In this document: positions 4,018-59,672 of the stretch, piece by piece
Position numbering within the stretch: position 1 is the first letter of the stretch
Layout: each line of letters begins with the position of its first letter
Assembly: GCA_041906785.1 (NCBI GenBank)
Contig: JAYRIM010000023.1
Span: 129,985-193,984, forward strand
Length of the DNA: 64,000 nucleotides
Source of the DNA: Candidatus Levyibacteriota bacterium
GTDB taxonomy: Bacteria > Patescibacteriota > Microgenomatia > Levybacterales > UBA12049
Direction: 5' to 3'
Position numbers and translations under genes: made by a program
The notes under the pieces: generated by a model
What the model was told of the DNA's origin: nothing
The model's input: the letters and a program-made list of their open reading frames with translations, nothing else
The model's database searches: none

Positions 4018-4677
4018 ATGTATATTGTTACATTCTTGATTGAATTATTAGTACTATTTCTTTTATCTAAGCAAGTTACACAACACATTTCTTCACTCCT
4101 ACACAAATTAACGAAAAATAGAAAAGTTACAGTCTATTTAATTGCTTTTTTCTTCCTACCAGGCACTTTTATTCATGAACTTGCTCATTTTCTCATGGCG
4201 AAAATACTTTTCGTTCCTGTAGGGTCATTTTCTCTCAAACCTGAAGCAATTGGTCATGATATTCGCCTAGGAAAAGTTATGATCGCAAAGACAGATTTTT
4301 TCAGACGTCTTCTTATCGGCGCTGCGCCTTTTATCTTAGGTGTCTACCTAATTCTTTTTATCGTTTCAATCATCCAACAAAATCAGCTGTGGAATAACAT
4401 GTATATACTTCTTATATGCGGCGCTCTTATTTTCCAAATCGGCAACACAATGTTTTCAAGTAAAAAAGATATGAAAGGTGCTATCGAACTTATCTGTATT
4501 GTTTTGTTTCTTCTACTTTTTCTCTATCTCATGGGATTCCGTATAGCTGTTACTGACCAAACAATGGACTTTCTAAACTCTATTTTCCAAAAAGCATCTA
4601 TTTTTCTTCTACCGCCCGTTATCATAGATATTTTTCTTCTTGGGCTTTTTAAGGTTTTAGTTAAACCGACAAATTAA
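4018..4677 (+). CDS. polytopic membrane protein with an HExxH motif (putative intramembrane zinc metalloprotease-like)
   Basis: 219 aa with at least 5 hydrophobic helices. HELAH lies within a predicted helix (PGTFIHELAHFLMAKILFVP). The family assignment is tentative. Confidence 0.5.
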   Translation: MYIVTFLIELLVLFLLSKQVTQHISSLLHKLTKNRKVTVYLIAFFFLPGTFIHELAHFLMAKILFVPVGSFSLKPEAIGHDIRLGKVMIAKTDFFRRLLIGAAPFILGVYLILFIVSIIQQNQLWNNMYILLICGALIFQIGNTMFSSKKDMKGAIELICIVLFLLLFLYLMGFRIAVTDQTMDFLNSIFQKASIFLLPPVIIDIFLLGLFKVLVKPTN

Positions 4678-6433: not shown

Positions 6434-7546
6434 TTAGGATTTGCTTCTTATCCGCTCTTCTTCTTGTTTTATTGCATAATCCACAACGAAAAGCATTGTA
6501 ATATTAAAAAATAACGTACTTAATGCATAAAATTGGAAACTATAAAAAAGGAAAAACTGAGTCAGGAGAATAAGAATTAATAGGGCAATTTTAAATATTT
6601 TAAAAGCATATAAACGGGAACGGCGAAGAAAAAGCAACCCATGAAGAATAGTTACTGCAGCTACAGAAGCGGTTACTAAAACACCCCATTTATCAAGCGA
6701 AAGCGTCAGATGTTCAGTTAAGCTGTACGAGACAAGTACTATGGAGATACTTGCTTGAACCAATAATAAACAAATTGCAATCCTCGTAAAGAATAATGAT
6801 TTCGTTATTTCAAAATACATTATTCGTATTTTTCTTCTAAACGTATAAAACAAGCTTGGATTCTTTGGATGGATTGCGTCAATATGAGAAAGTAAATCAT
6901 ATAACCACTTAGCAATAGGATCTTCCAGATCAGATTTCTTTACATATTCGAGCGCTAAACGTTCTTCTTCAGTATCTAAATCATTAATAACGGCTTCTTT
7001 CGTCATATCAAGCGCATTAATAAGATACTCTTTTTTTGAAAATGCTTTATATTGCGGAATCATGCGAAATAATAAAAATAGAAAAACGAAAATAATATAG
7101 ATTAGTGCGATAGTAGGCTGAAAAAAATAATTATTATCACTGGTAACAAACTTTCCAAGTTCATCGATAAACGCTCCGAATCCTATGCCTCCTAACGATG
7201 CAGAGATTTTTAAGATAGAACGGTTAAGAAACGTTAACTGAAACACTATAGCAGCAAGCATAAAAAAACCTCCCCAAAGCATATGAGCAATATGAAGACC
7301 ATTTCCACCTAATTCGGGATACCCGGTAATAAAGAGGAAAAAACGAATAACAAACAAAGAAGATACAGCAGAAATAAAAAAATTTTCAAGTAAATCGTCC
7401 GCTTCTATATTCCTAATAAAAATATTCGATGTCTTCATGTCTCTAGTATACCAAAGCATGAGTTGGTTAGTTCTGAAAAAATATGCTATTATTCGCCTAC
7501 TGTGAAGAAGCAAACAAATAAAAAAATACGTGAACAAGCAATACAC
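6434..7546 (-). CDS. polytopic membrane protein, unknown function
   Basis: 370 aa and strongly hydrophobic. The true start is probably an internal Met (near 7459 or 7438) to avoid overlapping the divergent gene at 7463. Confidence 0.5.
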   Translation of the reverse strand: MYCLFTYFFICLLLHSRRIIAYFFRTNQLMLWYTRDMKTSNIFIRNIEADDLLENFFISAVSSLFVIRFFLFITGYPELGGNGLHIAHMLWGGFFMLAAIVFQLTFLNRSILKISASLGGIGFGAFIDELGKFVTSDNNYFFQPTIALIYIIFVFLFLLFRMIPQYKAFSKKEYLINALDMTKEAVINDLDTEEERLALEYVKKSDLEDPIAKWLYDLLSHIDAIHPKNPSLFYTFRRKIRIMYFEITKSLFFTRIAICLLLVQASISIVLVSYSLTEHLTLSLDKWGVLVTASVAAVTILHGLLFLRRSRLYAFKIFKIALLILILLTQFFLFYSFQFYALSTLFFNITMLFVVDYAIKQEEERIRSKS

Positions 7547-8050
7547 ATCGCTGGCGAAATCTCAAACCTTATTACCCAGTATACCCACGACAGCGCTACT
7601 TCTAAGTTTTTTCTTACTGATGAAATAAGCGCGCATTTTTATATAGCAGCTGGAGGCTTTGCATCTGTTATTTATGATCCACAACTTGAAGCGGATACCG
7701 TAAGAAACACTCATGCTTTATCTTTTTTTCTCATCCTTATAACGTATGGATTTCAAATATACCTTCGTGAACGGTCATTAGAAACCAATAGTGCTCCGTA
7801 CACATTACCATCAGATAGTGAAAAAATCGAGCGAGTAAGTACACTCATTCTAGAACGAGCTGAAAATGCAGAACTTGTTTCTTCACCCCTTGCTGACGAA
7901 ATTATAGAGATAACCTTGGCACAAGTTCAAAAAACAATACATACAGACGACTTTATGATTGCAGAACATAAACTGGATGAAAAAAAGCTCTATGTCTATA
8001 TGACAATTTCTCTGTACTACGGCTACAATATCGCCTCGGAATTATTATAA
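7463..8050 (+). CDS. hypothetical protein, paralog A of the pair flanking the helicase
   Basis: 195 aa. It shares clear blocks with the ORF at 10061-10738: QYTHDSATSKF / EYTHDSFSSKF, and FFLILITYGFQIYLRERSLETNSAPY / FYFLIICGIQMYLKERSITKNHAPY. Confidence 0.55.
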   Translation: MVSSEKICYYSPTVKKQTNKKIREQAIHIAGEISNLITQYTHDSATSKFFLTDEISAHFYIAAGGFASVIYDPQLEADTVRNTHALSFFLILITYGFQIYLRERSLETNSAPYTLPSDSEKIERVSTLILERAENAELVSSPLADEIIEITLAQVQKTIHTDDFMIAEHKLDEKKLYVYMTISLYYGYNIASELL

Positions 8051-8102
8051 GAAAATCTCGTTTTTTAAAACGCTTAAGAATAATACGTTGTAATAGAAAT
8101 AG

Positions 8103-9929
8103 TTAGGTTGACAAAACCAATTTTAAATATGTATTTCCTAATACGTATAACTCACTTATGGCACGTGTTAATGCAACATATACGAGATCCCTATCAACCT
8201 TTTTTCTTTCTTCTTGCAAGTTTTCAGGCAACCCCTCCAGATTAAACGATTTCTTATGCATACCAACAAGAAAAACTACATCGAATTCCACTCCCTGTGC
8301 CTCATTAATTGTGAGAACATGAATATTTTTATAGGCTGATAATTGCCTTTTAAATTGTTGTAGATATTCTTCTGATTTTGCCAAAACTCCGATAACCTCA
8401 TCCTTTTTATTTTCAATAACAGAAATGATTTTTTTAATCTCAGACTGTTTATTATCAACGATACATTCTTCAACAGCCCTTCCTTCCTTTACTTGATCCG
8501 GTATAGTGACAGGATAGCCTAAGGATTGAATATATGAAAGAATTTGTTTCGTATTACGATATACTTTTTGGAGTACAACTTTACGGTCAGTTTCAAATGT
8601 TTCATATACTTCTTCCCAATTTGAAATAGTGAAAGGTAATGTTCGCTGAATAAGGTCACCGACATATATAAGACCATTCGTCTGAGAATTAATAGAAGAT
8701 TTAATAAGAGAAATCTGTTCTGAGAGATAATTTTCTGCCTCATCGAGCACAATTAAAGAATATATAACTGGTTGTAGCATAATTTTCTTTACGTACTTAC
8801 CATTCATCAGCTTCACATATTTTTCAACTATTTGATGTAATCGACCTTTTTCCAACATGGAAAGCCTAAGCAATACTGTAAGATCAAATCGATCTAAGAC
8901 ATTCCTCTGTTTTTGATTAGCTAACAACACTAATTGTTCTTCTGAAAAATAATCTTTATAAGTTTCATGCAGTACTTTATAGATATCTTTCCCAAGTTTC
9001 ATAGTTTTTAGATTCTTCAATGCTTGATTTTTAGCGTATTCATATATATCTTTTTTGTGTTCGCTAGTTCCATATCGCAAAACGAATCGCGTATTGGGTA
9101 ACCCTAAAATATCTCGAGCCCATTCATGAAAAGTAGTAATAGTGACTTTATGAATACCAAGTTGGGGTAAAAGTGAGCTAAAGTATTGTTTGGTTATACT
9201 ATCATGTACGAAAACAATAATGTCCTTTGCTGGAAATAATTCAGCTGTATCGGGCGATTGTATGAGAAAAGCAGCTCTGTGAAGTGCAAGTGTTGTTTTA
9301 CCAGAACCTGCAGGACCAGAAATGAGAAATGATCCAAAATAGTGAGAACGGATTATTGTATCCTGGGCTTTTTCCATTTGCTCAACAATTTCTTTAAGCA
9401 TGAATTGATTTTTCTTTTCTGAAAAATATTCTTGATAAATAAGTTCTCGCGGATACCTATCAGATTCTGTCGACATAAAAAGAATTTTTCCATCAACTAT
9501 CAAAAATTGATCTTTCCTTATTAACCATCCACTCCTTTTCTCACCGCTTGGCGTTTCATATAAAAACCTTCCAGGAGAATTGAATCGAATAACTGCCGCA
9601 GGAGCAATCCAAGAATAGGTTGATTCAGCTATGTATGGAAAACGGCCAAAATAGAGTGTCTTCTGCTCAGTTTCATCGTCAAATTTGACATCACAACGAA
9701 CGAAATAAGGAGAAGCATGTTGCTGATCCATGTTTCGCTGAGTGTCTAAGTGAAGATAAAGCAATACTTCTTTCGTATCTCGTTCCTCACCTCGGGCATG
9801 AATTAGCTCTTTACGTAGTTGCATAATCGAAGTATCAATTCTCTTCTTCGTAGAGAGTATTCGGTCAGAAACTTTTAAAACATGCATTTTTGCCTCTTTA
9901 AGCTGAGTATTCTTCTGTATCTCATCCAT
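8103..9929 (-). CDS. SF1 UvrD-like DNA helicase, HelD/helicase-IV-like
   Basis: 608 aa. N-terminal coiled-coil/HelD-like region, Walker A (SGPAGSGKTTLALHRAAF), DEAE-box-like LDEAENY, and C-terminal motif VI (VYVALTRAISELYVLG). Confidence 0.75.
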   Translation of the reverse strand: MDEIQKNTQLKEAKMHVLKVSDRILSTKKRIDTSIMQLRKELIHARGEERDTKEVLLYLHLDTQRNMDQQHASPYFVRCDVKFDDETEQKTLYFGRFPYIAESTYSWIAPAAVIRFNSPGRFLYETPSGEKRSGWLIRKDQFLIVDGKILFMSTESDRYPRELIYQEYFSEKKNQFMLKEIVEQMEKAQDTIIRSHYFGSFLISGPAGSGKTTLALHRAAFLIQSPDTAELFPAKDIIVFVHDSITKQYFSSLLPQLGIHKVTITTFHEWARDILGLPNTRFVLRYGTSEHKKDIYEYAKNQALKNLKTMKLGKDIYKVLHETYKDYFSEEQLVLLANQKQRNVLDRFDLTVLLRLSMLEKGRLHQIVEKYVKLMNGKYVKKIMLQPVIYSLIVLDEAENYLSEQISLIKSSINSQTNGLIYVGDLIQRTLPFTISNWEEVYETFETDRKVVLQKVYRNTKQILSYIQSLGYPVTIPDQVKEGRAVEECIVDNKQSEIKKIISVIENKKDEVIGVLAKSEEYLQQFKRQLSAYKNIHVLTINEAQGVEFDVVFLVGMHKKSFNLEGLPENLQEERKKVDRDLVYVALTRAISELYVLGNTYLKLVLST

Positions 9930-10060
9930 GAAAAGATTATACTTGCAGGTTGTTTATTTACAAGACTGTTTCTTTATGGTAAAATTGAAGATACATTAGT
10001 TAGTACTTATAAATTTCTAGCCTCAAAAAGCTTCAAATTCCTCACTTACAAGCTGATTTT

Positions 10061-10738
10061 ATGTTAAACCTCATAAAATTCACCCTTAGCCCTTTTGTAC
10101 ATCTGACTCTCTATTCTTACTTGCCAATTCTTATATTTCTTTTTATACTGAATATACAGGCAGAATATAGTATGAAAACCCTGCCTGAACCTGCTGAACA
10201 GCAACAACAAACCATCCTCGCAACTCGTATCTGGGAAGACGTCGTCCATTCAATGCATGAATATACACACGACAGTTTTTCTTCGAAATTTTTACCTCCG
10301 GAAGAGATGCTTACTTATGTACGGCCGATAGCTGCAGCCTTTGCTCAACTGCAGTATACTCCTCTACCAACAAAGCGAGAAATTTATAAATCCCATCTGT
10401 ATGCTCTATTTTATTTTCTAATTATTTGTGGCATTCAAATGTATCTTAAAGAACGTTCGATAACCAAAAACCATGCTCCGTATGCTATCGAAACGAACGA
10501 AGCACACGTACGGAGAGTAAAAACGAATGTTATGCAAGAGCTGACAGAAGGAATTAAAGTTTTTCCACCATTAAATCATGTGATGGATATCATGCTAACT
10601 CATCTCGTAACTCCACGCAGACTTGAACGCTTACCATTAAAAAATTTTGAGTTTGACTCAGCTAAATTTGATAAATTTCTACCAGTAACACTTCTCTGGG
10701 GGTATCTTTTCGCCAGAGGAATAATTATTGATAAATAA
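10061..10738 (+). CDS. hypothetical protein, paralog B of the pair flanking the helicase
   Basis: 225 aa as tracked; the likely start is the internal MKTLPEPAEQQQ at about 10172. Paralogous to 7463-8050. Confidence 0.55.
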   Translation: MLNLIKFTLSPFVHLTLYSYLPILIFLFILNIQAEYSMKTLPEPAEQQQQTILATRIWEDVVHSMHEYTHDSFSSKFLPPEEMLTYVRPIAAAFAQLQYTPLPTKREIYKSHLYALFYFLIICGIQMYLKERSITKNHAPYAIETNEAHVRRVKTNVMQELTEGIKVFPPLNHVMDIMLTHLVTPRRLERLPLKNFEFDSAKFDKFLPVTLLWGYLFARGIIIDK

Positions 10739-10758
10739 TAAATATAATATAAGTAATA

Positions 10759-11178
10759 ATGAAATTCTTCTCCCTTCATCCCAACACCTTTATTATACGG
10801 TTTGATGCAAATGAAGATGTTTTTATTTCATTAAGTGATTATTGTAAAACTAATAATACTGGAGGATATTTTACCTGTATTGGATCTACGAAAGATGTGA
10901 CTCTTAGTTATTATAACCTCGAAACGAAACAATATGAAGATCATCAAATTGTCGAGGATCTAGAAGTAGTTAGTATTACTGGGAATATTTCGTTTAAGGA
11001 TTCTGTACCTGCAGTTCATGCACATGGTGTGTTTTCAAAACGAGATTTATCAACAATCGGCGGACACATAAAAAAAATGATCGTTTCTGCGACCTGTGAA
11101 GTTTACCTCACTATTTTTCATAAACCATTGAAACGAGCATTTGATCAAAACACAGGATTAAACTTACTATCAGAGTGA
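10759..11178 (+). CDS. PPC (DUF296) domain protein
   Basis: 139 aa. The pattern IGSTKDVTLSYYN...EVVSITGNISF...HAHGVFS...GGHI...TCEVYLT fits the PPC/DUF296 fold signature. Confidence 0.55.
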   Translation: MKFFSLHPNTFIIRFDANEDVFISLSDYCKTNNTGGYFTCIGSTKDVTLSYYNLETKQYEDHQIVEDLEVVSITGNISFKDSVPAVHAHGVFSKRDLSTIGGHIKKMIVSATCEVYLTIFHKPLKRAFDQNTGLNLLSE

Positions 11179-57136: not shown

Positions 57137-57850
57137 TTAAGAATTTACAATGATTTTCAGGAATTGATCACTATCTAGACTTGCTCCTCCCACAAGTACA
57201 CCGTCAAGATGCTCCATACTCGTAAATCTATGAACATTGTCCGCAGTAACACTTCCCCCATAGAGAACTGCTGTAACTCCCTGTGCTTGTTTTATTTGCT
57301 TTGCGACAGTATCGGCGTTTTCTGGTGTATCGGGATGACCACTACCAATTGCGAAGACCGGCTCATATGCCACTATAGATACTCCTTCTGGTATAACTGT
57401 CTCTAGACCTTGGACACAATAAATCGGTTCTATATTGTACTTTTTTGCTTCTGTAACTTTTTTCCCTAATACCTCATCACTTTCAAAAAAATATGTCCTA
57501 CGTTCTGAGTGTCCAATAATAGCAAAAGACACATCATAACCTTCGAGATTCTCTCCACAGACGGCTCCCGTATACGCACCTGCCGAAAACGGGCTTATAT
57601 CTTGCACTCCTAAAGAAAGACCAGGCAGGCTACTTAATAACCTCTCAGAAAAAAGCTGTAAAGATGGAAGCGGAGGAGCTATAACAATGTGTTTCGTATC
57701 AAGAAGAAACTGATCGTTAAAACCTATCTTAAACTTTTCTATCCAGTTCTGAATGTCAAAACGGGTTTTATGAGATTTAAAGTTACCAACAATTGTTAAT
57801 TTTTTCATGTGGTACAATGCATTATACCCTATGCAAATCGATCTGCTCAA
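57137..57850 (-). CDS. tpiA: triosephosphate isomerase
   Basis: AYEPVFAIGSGHPDTPE and VLYGGSVTADN motifs; the start is likely the internal MKKLTIVGNFK at about 57808. Confidence 0.85.
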   Translation of the reverse strand: MSRSICIGYNALYHMKKLTIVGNFKSHKTRFDIQNWIEKFKIGFNDQFLLDTKHIVIAPPLPSLQLFSERLLSSLPGLSLGVQDISPFSAGAYTGAVCGENLEGYDVSFAIIGHSERRTYFFESDEVLGKKVTEAKKYNIEPIYCVQGLETVIPEGVSIVAYEPVFAIGSGHPDTPENADTVAKQIKQAQGVTAVLYGGSVTADNVHRFTSMEHLDGVLVGGASLDSDQFLKIIVNS

Positions 57851-59672
57851 GGATGTAAACGCCGAACAAAAAAAAGCTATTCTTCATACTGATGGTCCTG
57901 CAATCGTTCTTGCTGGCGCAGGATCAGGAAAAACCAGAGTTCTAACATATAAAGTCATCTATCTCATAGTTGAAAAACATGTACCGCCTGATGCTATTCT
58001 TATGGTAACATTTACCAATAAAGCAGCAAGTGAAATGAAAGAGAGAGTTCAAACGTTTCTTTCTCAATACAACATAAAAAACTTTGAAAAACCTTTTATA
58101 TCTACGTTCCACTCACTCTGTGCCAAAATATTAAGAAGAGAAGCTAAATATCTTGGTTTGTCGTCACATTTCGTAATTTATGATGATCAAGATCAACTGG
58201 ACGCTATAAAAGAATGTATGCATAAACTACTCATTTCTCCAAAAGATACAAAACCAAATGCTGTACTTGGAACAATCTCTCAGGCAAAAAATGAACTTAT
58301 ATCTCCAAAAGATTATGCATTATTTGCACGTGGCACATTTCAAAAAATAGCCGCAACGCTTTATACATATTATCAAAATCTTTTAAAAGAACATGACGCA
58401 GTTGATTTCGATGATCTTATTTTTCATGTTGTGACACTATTCCAAAATAATCCAGAAGTTTTAAAAAAATATCAAAATCAGTTCCAATATATTTTAATTG
58501 ATGAATACCAAGATACAAACAGAGCACAATATGTTCTAACGAAGTTATTAGCGCAGACTCATAATAATGTTTGCGTTGTTGGCGATTTTTCACAAAGTAT
58601 TTATTCTTGGAGAGGTGCTGATTATAGAAATCTTTTACGTTTTAAGGAAGATTTTCCTGATACTAAAACATTTTCTTTATCCCAAAATTACCGCTCGACA
58701 CAAAAAATTCTGGATGGAGCATCAACAGTCATAGCTAAGAATACATCTCATCCTGTTTTGTCGCTGTGGACAGAAAATCCAGGGGGAGAAGAGATTGATA
58801 TTTATGAAGCAATCAATGAGCAAGAAGAGGCAGATTTTATTATAAGAACTATTTATTCTATCGGTATAAGTAAGCTTGATCATATTGCTGTGTTATATCG
58901 AACGAACGCTCAATCCCGCGTGGTTGAAGAAGCATTCTTACACCATGGCATTCCTTATACACTTATTGGAGGGACAAGATTCTATGAAAGAAAAGAAGTT
59001 AAAGATGTTTTATCATATTTACGAATATTTGTGAATCCGAAAGATCTTATCTCTTATAAAAGGTTAGAAAAAATCGGTAAAACGAGATTGGCAAGATTCA
59101 TCGAATTTACAAAAAAGCATACGACAGAAGAAGAGACAATCGAGATACTCGATGGAATAATAAAAGAAACGCAGTATCTTGAATTATATGACGAGAACGA
59201 TGAGCAAGATAGAATGCGTCTCGAAAATATAAAAGAGCTTCGTTCAGTTGCGCTTTCTTTTCCACATCTCACAGAATTTTTAGAGAATGTTGCGTTAGTG
59301 GAAAGCGAATATATAACCGAACAAACGAGAAAAGAAGAACGAAAAAATACTGTTACATTAATGACATTACATGCAGCAAAAGGACTCGAATTCCCAATCG
59401 TTTTTATGATCGGCATGGAAGAAGGAATTTTCCCACATAGTCGTTCTTTAATGAATCGAGAAGAATTAGAAGAAGAGAGAAGACTCTGTTATGTAGGTAT
59501 GACCCGAGCAAAAGAGAAACTATATCTAACCTATGCTCGGAGAAGAACATTTTTTGGCCAAAGAACAAATAACACGATCTCACGGTTTATTTTCGAACTG
59601 CCTGAACATGTAGTGAATAAAAGTTTGGAGTACAATAAAATAAAGAAAGAAGGCATACTGGAATACTTCTAG
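57807..59672 (+). CDS. UvrD/PcrA-type SF1 DNA helicase (short form)
   Basis: 621 aa; GAGSGKTRVLT Walker A, DEYQDT, and motif VI (VGMTRAKEKLYLTYA). Confidence 0.8.
   Translation: MWYNALYPMQIDLLKDVNAEQKKAILHTDGPAIVLAGAGSGKTRVLTYKVIYLIVEKHVPPDAILMVTFTNKAASEMKERVQTFLSQYNIKNFEKPFISTFHSLCAKILRREAKYLGLSSHFVIYDDQDQLDAIKECMHKLLISPKDTKPNAVLGTISQAKNELISPKDYALFARGTFQKIAATLYTYYQNLLKEHDAVDFDDLIFHVVTLFQNNPEVLKKYQNQFQYILIDEYQDTNRAQYVLTKLLAQTHNNVCVVGDFSQSIYSWRGADYRNLLRFKEDFPDTKTFSLSQNYRSTQKILDGASTVIAKNTSHPVLSLWTENPGGEEIDIYEAINEQEEADFIIRTIYSIGISKLDHIAVLYRTNAQSRVVEEAFLHHGIPYTLIGGTRFYERKEVKDVLSYLRIFVNPKDLISYKRLEKIGKTRLARFIEFTKKHTTEEETIEILDGIIKETQYLELYDENDEQDRMRLENIKELRSVALSFPHLTEFLENVALVESEYITEQTRKEERKNTVTLMTLHAAKGLEFPIVFMIGMEEGIFPHSRSLMNREELEEERRLCYVGMTRAKEKLYLTYARRRTFFGQRTNNTISRFIFELPEHVVNKSLEYNKIKKEGILEYF

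Follow-up and report, generated by a model that had tools for sequence, protein, structure and literature searches.

Genes and features at the locus

The 64-kb stretch of DNA analysed here (64,000 nucleotides, referred to as the window) originates from a Candidatus Levyibacteriota bacterium and contains, in its first 11 kb, a helicase-like ATPase gene that is flanked on the opposite strand by two paralogous genes, A and B, of an orphan protein family. The window has a low GC content (0.32-0.41), a cluster of ribosomal protein genes begins at ~13.5 kb, and the public proteins that are identical or nearly identical to its gene products come from metagenome-assembled genomes (MAGs) of Patescibacteria or Candidatus Levyibacteriota. 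An earlier interpretation made from the letters alone (the sequence-only reading) described the trio and offered two explanations: a module in which the flanking proteins assist the helicase in RNA polymerase recycling or in defence, and insertion of the helicase gene into a tandem duplicate. Comparison with related genomes favours the second. Very probably, a helD-like transcription unit moved into the spacer between A and B, and the three genes do not constitute a functional unit; A and B would most likely act together with a neighbouring membrane protein, designated here Mem334. The features of the locus are as follows.

6434-7438, minus strand: Mem334, a membrane protein of 334 amino acids (ATG at 7438); open reading frame (ORF) without a Pfam family
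7502-8050, plus strand: paralog A, 182 amino acids from GTG 7502; the reading frame extends upstream to TTG 7463
8051-8102, no strand assigned: convergent spacer of 52 bp between the stop codon of A and that of the helicase gene; left junction of the insert
8103-9929, minus strand: compact HelD-like superfamily 1 (SF1) ATPase, 608 amino acids, matched in Pfam (UvrD, Viral_helicase1), NCBIfam, PDB and Foldseek searches
9930-10039, minus strand: putative 5' regulatory region of the helicase gene, with TTGTAA at 9963-9958 and TATAAT at 9941-9936; DNA homology to L035, a helicase locus of a sister genome
10114-10171, plus strand: promoter-proximal region of paralog B, with TTGCCA at 10121-10126 and TATACT at 10144-10149; right junction of the insert
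10172-10738, plus strand: paralog B, 188 amino acids, a member of the B subfamily of the orphan family

All three ORFs of the plus, minus, plus trio are present, and the coordinates given for the helicase and for paralog B in the sequence-only reading are exact. Paralog A had been placed at 7463-8050; the plus-strand ORF is indeed open over this interval, and it is the start that shifts. The lengths of its orthologs (182 amino acids for P0064, which is 99% identical, and 185-210 amino acids for the other listed orthologs) indicate that the true start is probably GTG 7502 rather than TTG 7463. With this start, A does not overlap the divergently transcribed Mem334 gene, from which it is separated by a 63-bp spacer. 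The start of paralog B at 10172 agrees with an identical public protein of 188 amino acids (P0001), and a longer version beginning at ATG 10061 has no homolog support. The order A-helicase-B recurs in L087, a separate Logan assembly of the same strain, and is not a one-off misassembly.

Probable movement of the helicase unit into the A-B spacer

Contig 3 of a sister MAG (GCA_964512695.1) carries A (72% identity) and B (76% identity) next to each other, 122 bp apart, in a gene order with which the window is syntenic: PspC, a 199-amino-acid protein, FKBP, the membrane protein, A, B and, further along, PCC, DUF8173, MBL-fold, GNAT, rpsI, rplM and rplQ. The helicase ortholog of this genome (P0084, 71% identity) resides on contig 6 (L035), near obg. 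A and B are directly adjacent at L001/L026, L006 and L008. At L007 (6596-7987), genes for a NUDIX protein and CorA occupy the A-B spacer in place of the helicase. The spacer is a variable site that has accepted unrelated insertions at least twice.

DNA homology places both boundaries of the insert. Window positions 10039 to 8137 align with positions 6869 to 8771 of the sister helicase locus L035, an alignment that includes ~110 bp upstream of the start codon. On the right, the window from 10114 onward aligns with the sister A-B spacer and the start of B (blastn, L001 7619-7748 with window 10114-10245). On the left, homology to the sister A gene ends at ~8034 and homology to the sister helicase locus starts at 8137. 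With the exception of the helicase itself, none of the neighbours at the sister helicase locus is found within the 64-kb window. A and B are homologous genes, adjacent in relatives, that are split here by a segment homologous to a gene located elsewhere in the sister genome. This supports the proposed insertion into a tandem duplicate, although the duplication is not recent, as A and B fall into two deep subfamilies of the tree described below.

The junctions exhibit no target-site duplication, no terminal inverted repeats and no other flanking repeats of note. The insert is also unremarkable in composition, with a GC content of 0.34 compared with 0.35-0.37 in the adjacent 2-kb windows. Insertion of a mobile element was rejected on these grounds.

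The ancestral state in this clade would have been A and B arranged head to tail, ~120-230 bp apart, divergent from the gene of the 334-amino-acid membrane protein and near that end of the ribosomal protein gene cluster which holds rpsI, rplM and rplQ. On the branch leading to the window, the complete helD-like unit, comprising the gene and a promoter region of ~110 bp, would then have moved from another chromosomal site into the spacer between A and B, in reverse orientation. We infer this direction from three other genomes, which polarise the change by having A next to B.

The helicase gene and the A/B genes lie on opposite strands, each with its own conserved promoter-like element. Upstream of the helicase gene, TTGTAA and TATAAT are separated by a 16-nt spacer, and 6 nt lie between the end of the -10 element and the ATG, suggesting that the mRNA may be leaderless. 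The upstream block of ~110 bp is 84% identical to its counterpart at L035 6869-6978 and includes ~60 nt that are nearly invariant; it is more conserved between the genomes than the helicase coding sequence, and the conserved ~60-nt stretch suggests a regulatory block. Upstream of paralog B, TTGCCA and TATACT are 17 nt apart, and both are conserved in a three-way alignment with L001 and L006, where A and B are adjacent. The promoter assignments are based on this cross-genome conservation because the counts from a promoter/terminator scan of the region did not exceed the shuffled expectation.

The opposite course of events, whereby A-helicase-B is the ancestral order, the helicase was lost from the spacer or moved out of it several times, and the sandwich is the relic of an old module, is improbable. 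The comparison comprises five genomes, over which the direction of the rearrangement is not provable, and obg, which is close to the helicase in both L035 and L037 and close to B in L004, gives a hint of loose regional synteny. Nevertheless, this course requires at least three to four independent and precise excisions (L001, L006, L008 and L007) together with loss of linkage in all the single-copy lineages. Moreover, the sister A-B spacer is intact and can be aligned with the B-proximal spacer of the window, and the helicase carries the same upstream block at its other location.

Linkage between the helicase and the A/B family was surveyed at 83 A/B loci (75 unique, 675 kb) collected from species-representative genomes, metagenome contigs and exact-protein look-ups, using tblastn with the window helicase (E <= 1e-5). 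None of the 75 unique loci, 37 of which extend for at least 2 kb on both sides, contains the helicase. Assuming one helicase per ~1-Mb genome, a random gene is expected in the flanks of ~1 of 76 loci, which matches the observation. Conversely, tblastn and profile hidden Markov model (HMM) searches detected no A/B member at any of the four helicase-ortholog loci L035, L036, L037 and L088 (53-71% identity). A fifth helicase context (P0090, on a JGI contig for which the gene table was used) has different, mostly Pfam-annotated neighbours, and the neighbours of the helicase differ at every ortholog locus inspected. The distributions of the two families are also mismatched: the helicase family is Patescibacteria-wide, with more than 1000 members, whereas the A/B family comprises 48 representatives and is confined to Levybacteria. 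Homologs of the flanking proteins thus never co-occur with the helicase elsewhere among the loci surveyed, the very outcome that the sequence-only reading had named as counting against its module, and neither the partner nor the defence version of that module is upheld.

It is accordingly very unlikely that one or both of A and B serve RNA polymerase recycling as accessory subunits that attach to the HelD-like ATPase (to its N-terminal arm, for instance), much as the delta subunit cooperates with HelD in Bacillus. The three genes are immediately adjacent in this strain and in its second assembly, and A and B are uncharacterised, so that such a role is conceivable on functional grounds. In addition to the linkage counts, however, the sister genome keeps the helicase and A/B on different contigs, the taxonomic ranges of the families differ, and the genes are divided between opposite strands with separate conserved promoters.

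Least probable of all is an anti-phage defence island in which the UvrD-like ATPase is a GajB/DRT-type helicase and A/B are effectors or sensors: the PADLOC models RTasHel (2.7e-20), NERD+UvrD and GajB match the helicase, but they do so over generic SF1 motor regions only and HelD is the better match by both sequence and fold; A, B and Mem334 have no PADLOC or PHROG match; there is no GajA, reverse transcriptase or nuclease partner at the locus, the surroundings of which are housekeeping genes beside the ribosomal protein cluster; the helicase family occurs widely and varies little in length (~605-620 amino acids among the best 120 listed relatives), unlike patchy defence genes; mobile-element repeats are absent from the junctions; and the five helicase-ortholog contexts inspected show no consistent defence-island, nuclease or reverse transcriptase neighbours.

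A compact HelD-like ATPase

Several searches confirm the likeness to HelD and helicase IV that had been noted for the product of 8103-9929. Pfam returns generic SF1 domains only (UvrD-helicase, UvrD_C and Viral_helicase1, all above their cutoffs). The best NCBIfam model is HelD_BACSU (1.7e-36), with a score of 125.5 bits that misses the equivalog cutoff of 419; the cutoffs of the other two models, HelD_MYCSM (44 vs 1051) and HelR (67 vs 750), are missed as well. The best sequence match in the PDB is 6wvk_H, the Bacillus subtilis HelD in its complex with RNA polymerase (7e-29), and the alignment takes in the HelD-specific region that is N-terminal to the motor. Residues 65-176 align with the N-domain of B. 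subtilis HelD (residues 90-205) and, over the entire match, blocks 65-276 and 393-596 align with residues 90-302 and 543-752, respectively. The 1A insert between these blocks consists of 116 amino acids (277-392), compared with 240 amino acids (303-542) in B. subtilis HelD. Walker A (GPAGSGKTT, G205-T213) and Walker B (D396/E397) are invariant in 62 homologs.

The AlphaFold2 (AF2) model of the helicase, calculated from a 62-sequence alignment, has a predicted local distance difference test score (pLDDT) of 87 and a predicted template modelling score (pTM) of 0.78. It begins with an antiparallel helical hairpin (helices 3-44 and 48-72; pLDDT 84-92 for residues 1-70). A beta domain (77-166) comes next, then a 1A domain that a helical insert of ~100 amino acids (290-390) divides in two, and finally a 2A domain. 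The insert, which lies between 1A strands, is built of helices (290-361) and a beta-hairpin (365-387). In a Foldseek search of the PDB, ranks 1-7 are all HelD chains, with E values of 7.7e-25 to 3.1e-18. UvrD, PcrA and Rep rank below HelD, the first UvrD match having an E value of 1.7e-13.

Larsen et al. defined HelD by an N-terminal secondary-channel arm, by a clamp arm that splits 1A and by the motif DWR[A/S]P, described as 'absolutely conserved' (PMC8655204), the Trp of which sits in a Trp-cage (PMC8655204). HelD proteins are further expected to bind RNA polymerase and, at the expense of ATP, to release nucleic acids, while having no DNA-unwinding activity (PMC8655204). The window protein has a long N-terminal antiparallel helical arm in its predicted structure, a 1A domain that is split by an inserted clamp arm of about half length instead of a 1B domain, an SF1 1A/2A motor whose Walker A and Walker B are intact, and a fold that is closer to the solved HelD structures than to UvrD, PcrA or Rep; both arms are present in a shortened version. 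The DWR motif is lacking; its position is occupied by S106-W107-I108-A109-P110. The 62 Patescibacteria homologs have the consensus YSW[V/I]AP, in which S106 and W107 are invariant and P110 is at least 90% conserved. Relative to DWR[A/S]P, the Trp and the Ala-Pro pair are retained and the Asp and Arg are systematically replaced.

Of the known systems, Class I HelD (B. subtilis YvgS/HelD; PDB 6WVK and 6ZCA), an RNA polymerase recycling motor, is the best match to the helicase in sequence and in fold (Foldseek 7.7e-25, TMq 0.55). The two have the same order of parts, namely a helical arm, a beta-rich N-domain in which Ala-Pro comes after a conserved Trp, a split 1A and a 2A domain, and both Walker motifs are intact in the window protein. 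The differences are a total length of 608 amino acids vs 774, ~25 residues fewer before the first aligned block, a 1A arm of about half the size, and the family motif SW[I/V]AP vs DWR[A/S]P, together with the bit score that is well short of the Class I model cutoff.

Class II HelD/HelR (Mycobacterium smegmatis; PDB 6YXU, 6YYS and 8Q3I) accounts for Foldseek ranks 3-7 (E ~1e-18 to 1e-20), and the NCBIfam models HelR and HelD_MYCSM match the Walker-A region of the helicase. It is nonetheless a weaker match than Class I. The N-terminal arm is long in Class I HelD and short in Class II (PMC8655204), and the predicted long hairpin of the window protein, with a first helix of 42 residues, is nearer the long Class I arm. 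Escherichia coli helicase IV (also termed HelD) and UvrD/PcrA/Rep share the SF1 1A/2A motor, as reflected in the Pfam UvrD-helicase and UvrD_C matches. The NCBIfam model of helicase IV matches the protein with an E value of 2.2e-08, and JGI labels relatives as 'DNA helicase IV'; however, the fold matches to UvrD/PcrA are at least 7 orders of magnitude weaker than those to HelD. A separate canonical UvrD/PcrA gene is encoded in the window at 57807-59672 (plus strand, 621 amino acids, PF00580 with 306 bits), indicating that the gene at 8103-9929 is not the housekeeping helicase and that the genome possesses both types of SF1 protein.

Taken from its sequence and model, the protein appears to be a compact HelD-like ATPase that is not assigned to Class I, II or III, and it belongs to a Patescibacteria-wide family of such compact ATPases. 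Its mode of action would presumably be that of HelD in RNA polymerase recycling: the N-terminal helical hairpin would enter the secondary channel of RNA polymerase, and ATP would bring about release of the stalled polymerase.

The A/B family and its membrane-protein neighbour

A and B are 26% identical over 170 amino acids (BLASTP, E = 1e-23), far beyond chance, and their proposed paralogy is thereby established. In an alignment of 42 sequences, T32, D34, F40, F57, G177 and Y178 are invariant, and Y31, S35, K39, E94, R95, P103, G127 and K165 are at least 90% conserved. The conserved blocks of A and B are YT[HN]DSxxSKF, YLKERS, AP[YF] and WGY; the blocks that the sequence-only reading had picked out correspond to the most conserved columns of the alignment. 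The predicted structure of the family is all-alpha (pLDDT 87.8), and a hydrophobic segment that had been described as buried or transmembrane-like forms its central helix (residues 75-98). The helix is buried in the model and not transmembrane; the Kyte-Doolittle 19-residue means are 1.4-1.5 in the A and B proteins of the window and below 1.4 in most relatives. Because the central helix falls below the transmembrane level in most members, the A/B proteins are most likely soluble.

No known family is matched by sequence, or by fold in the PDB. A, B and 42 relatives gave no consistent match in Pfam, NCBIfam, PADLOC or PHROGs; a PDB profile search with the A/B alignment yielded a best E value of 1.9, and a Foldseek search of the PDB with the model yielded 0.69. 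That the family had not been recognised from its sequence is therefore no surprise. When 1.84 billion representative proteins were searched exhaustively with a profile, only 48 representatives at 50% identity emerged, and nearly all full-length matches are stand-alone proteins of ~175-220 amino acids. The orthologs of paralog A (46-99% identity) form 19 clusters. In a neighbour-joining tree, the 37 members included separate cleanly into an A and a B clade, each comprising copies from the clade of the window as well as single-copy members of other lineages, which indicates that the duplication is old and not a recent tandem copy. The family is small, consists of proteins of about 185 amino acids, is restricted to Levybacteria and is divided into two deep subfamilies.

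Many of the GTDB representative MAGs that carry the family (L010, L012, L014, L015, L017-L020, L025-L028 and L030) are titled 'uncultured Gammaproteobacteria bacterium', which is probably a placeholder or a mislabel. These titles were taken as submitter placeholders because other A/B-family loci are found in records titled Candidatus Levyibacteriota or Patescibacteria group.

The only recurrent linkage found for A/B is with Mem334, a polytopic protein with ~7-8 hydrophobic, predicted transmembrane segments. Mem334 has no match in Pfam, NCBIfam or PADLOC, and a PDB profile search with its alignment gave a best E value of 9.5. Its invariant motifs are HxAHxxWGG and GGxGFGxFIDELGKFxTxxNxYFF. Mem334 homologs are located within 3.5 kb of A/B genes at 39 of the 75 unique loci (e.g. 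L009 6905-7897 and L025 9879-10880). The loci with adequate flank are distributed as follows.

A-type loci with the membrane protein: 19 of 23
B-type loci with the membrane protein: 11 of 20
A+B loci with the membrane protein: 3 of 4

The proximity is preserved in two gene orders. In one, the membrane gene is divergent from B, or from A followed by B; in the other, A converges on metK, and the membrane gene lies beyond metK on the same strand as metK. This conserved proximity suggests that A and B act with Mem334, which most likely would be their working partner rather than the helicase.

The single-copy A-type genes (L020-L034 and L053-L086; e.g. L025 8019-8555 and 8585-9697) are nearly always followed tail to tail, after a gap of ~30-70 bp, by metK, which encodes S-adenosylmethionine synthetase; metK and then the membrane protein come after A at 21 of the 23 loci whose flanks are long enough. 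The 64-kb window itself contains no metK. A complete Patescibacteria genome of ~1.08 Mb (L004/L005 6648-6863, minus strand) retains, directly upstream of a B-type gene, only a 72-residue stretch that is 54% identical to residues 105-176 of Mem334, the best-conserved portion of this protein. The stretch, annotated as two ORFs of 45-49 amino acids, could be a gene remnant or a mini-protein.

Several points weigh against the proposal that the helD-like unit moved into the A-B spacer and that A/B act with Mem334 independently of it. The direction of the move is a matter of parsimony over five related genomes. The absence of the helicase from the A/B loci refers to ~+/-7 kb per locus, mostly on incomplete MAG contigs, and hence is a statement about linkage and not about co-presence in a genome. 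The adjacency in the strain is real, as two assemblies contain it, and some local co-regulation is possible. The association of A/B with Mem334 is one of guilt by association and fails at about one-third of the adequately flanked loci. With regard to the helicase, its HelD activity is presumed from likeness, the 'absolutely conserved' DWR reads SWI, and the NCBIfam equivalog cutoff is missed.

Some further features of the region were observed. At 4018-4677 (plus strand) the window encodes a 219-amino-acid protein with multiple transmembrane segments, no Pfam match and a HELAH-type motif (FIHELAHFL), which may be membrane metalloprotease-like. The sister genome carries three genes that the window lacks: two without Pfam matches (241 and 229 amino acids; L001 8279-9704, corresponding to window 10738-10759), which lie between B and the PCC-domain gene, and a Hydrolase_3 gene that precedes rpsI. 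Small gene gains and losses are concentrated in the whole stretch from the FKBP gene to rpsI.

The A-helicase-B arrangement is ordinary genome shuffling, a gene-order accident confined to one lineage, and the proposed helicase-accessory or defence system can be dropped. A broader interpretation is put forward only tentatively. The A/B family and Mem334 may form a Levybacteria-specific membrane system without detectable relatives, whose soluble part has been maintained in two subfamilies from an early point in the history of the order and has stayed beside the membrane gene through at least two gene orders, and the helicase may represent an undescribed, Patescibacteria-wide compact HelD class that is characterised by a clamp arm of half the usual size, a Trp-cage motif of the form SW[I/V]AP and, possibly, an mRNA without a leader. 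The departure of this compact HelD-like protein from the published invariant DWR bears on RNA polymerase recycling in ultrasmall bacteria and on the definition of the HelD family. The lineage-specific genes of the phylum are mostly devoid of functional leads, and the orphan all-alpha family, with its confidently predicted and unmatched fold, together with the unannotated membrane protein provides a concrete pair for testing.

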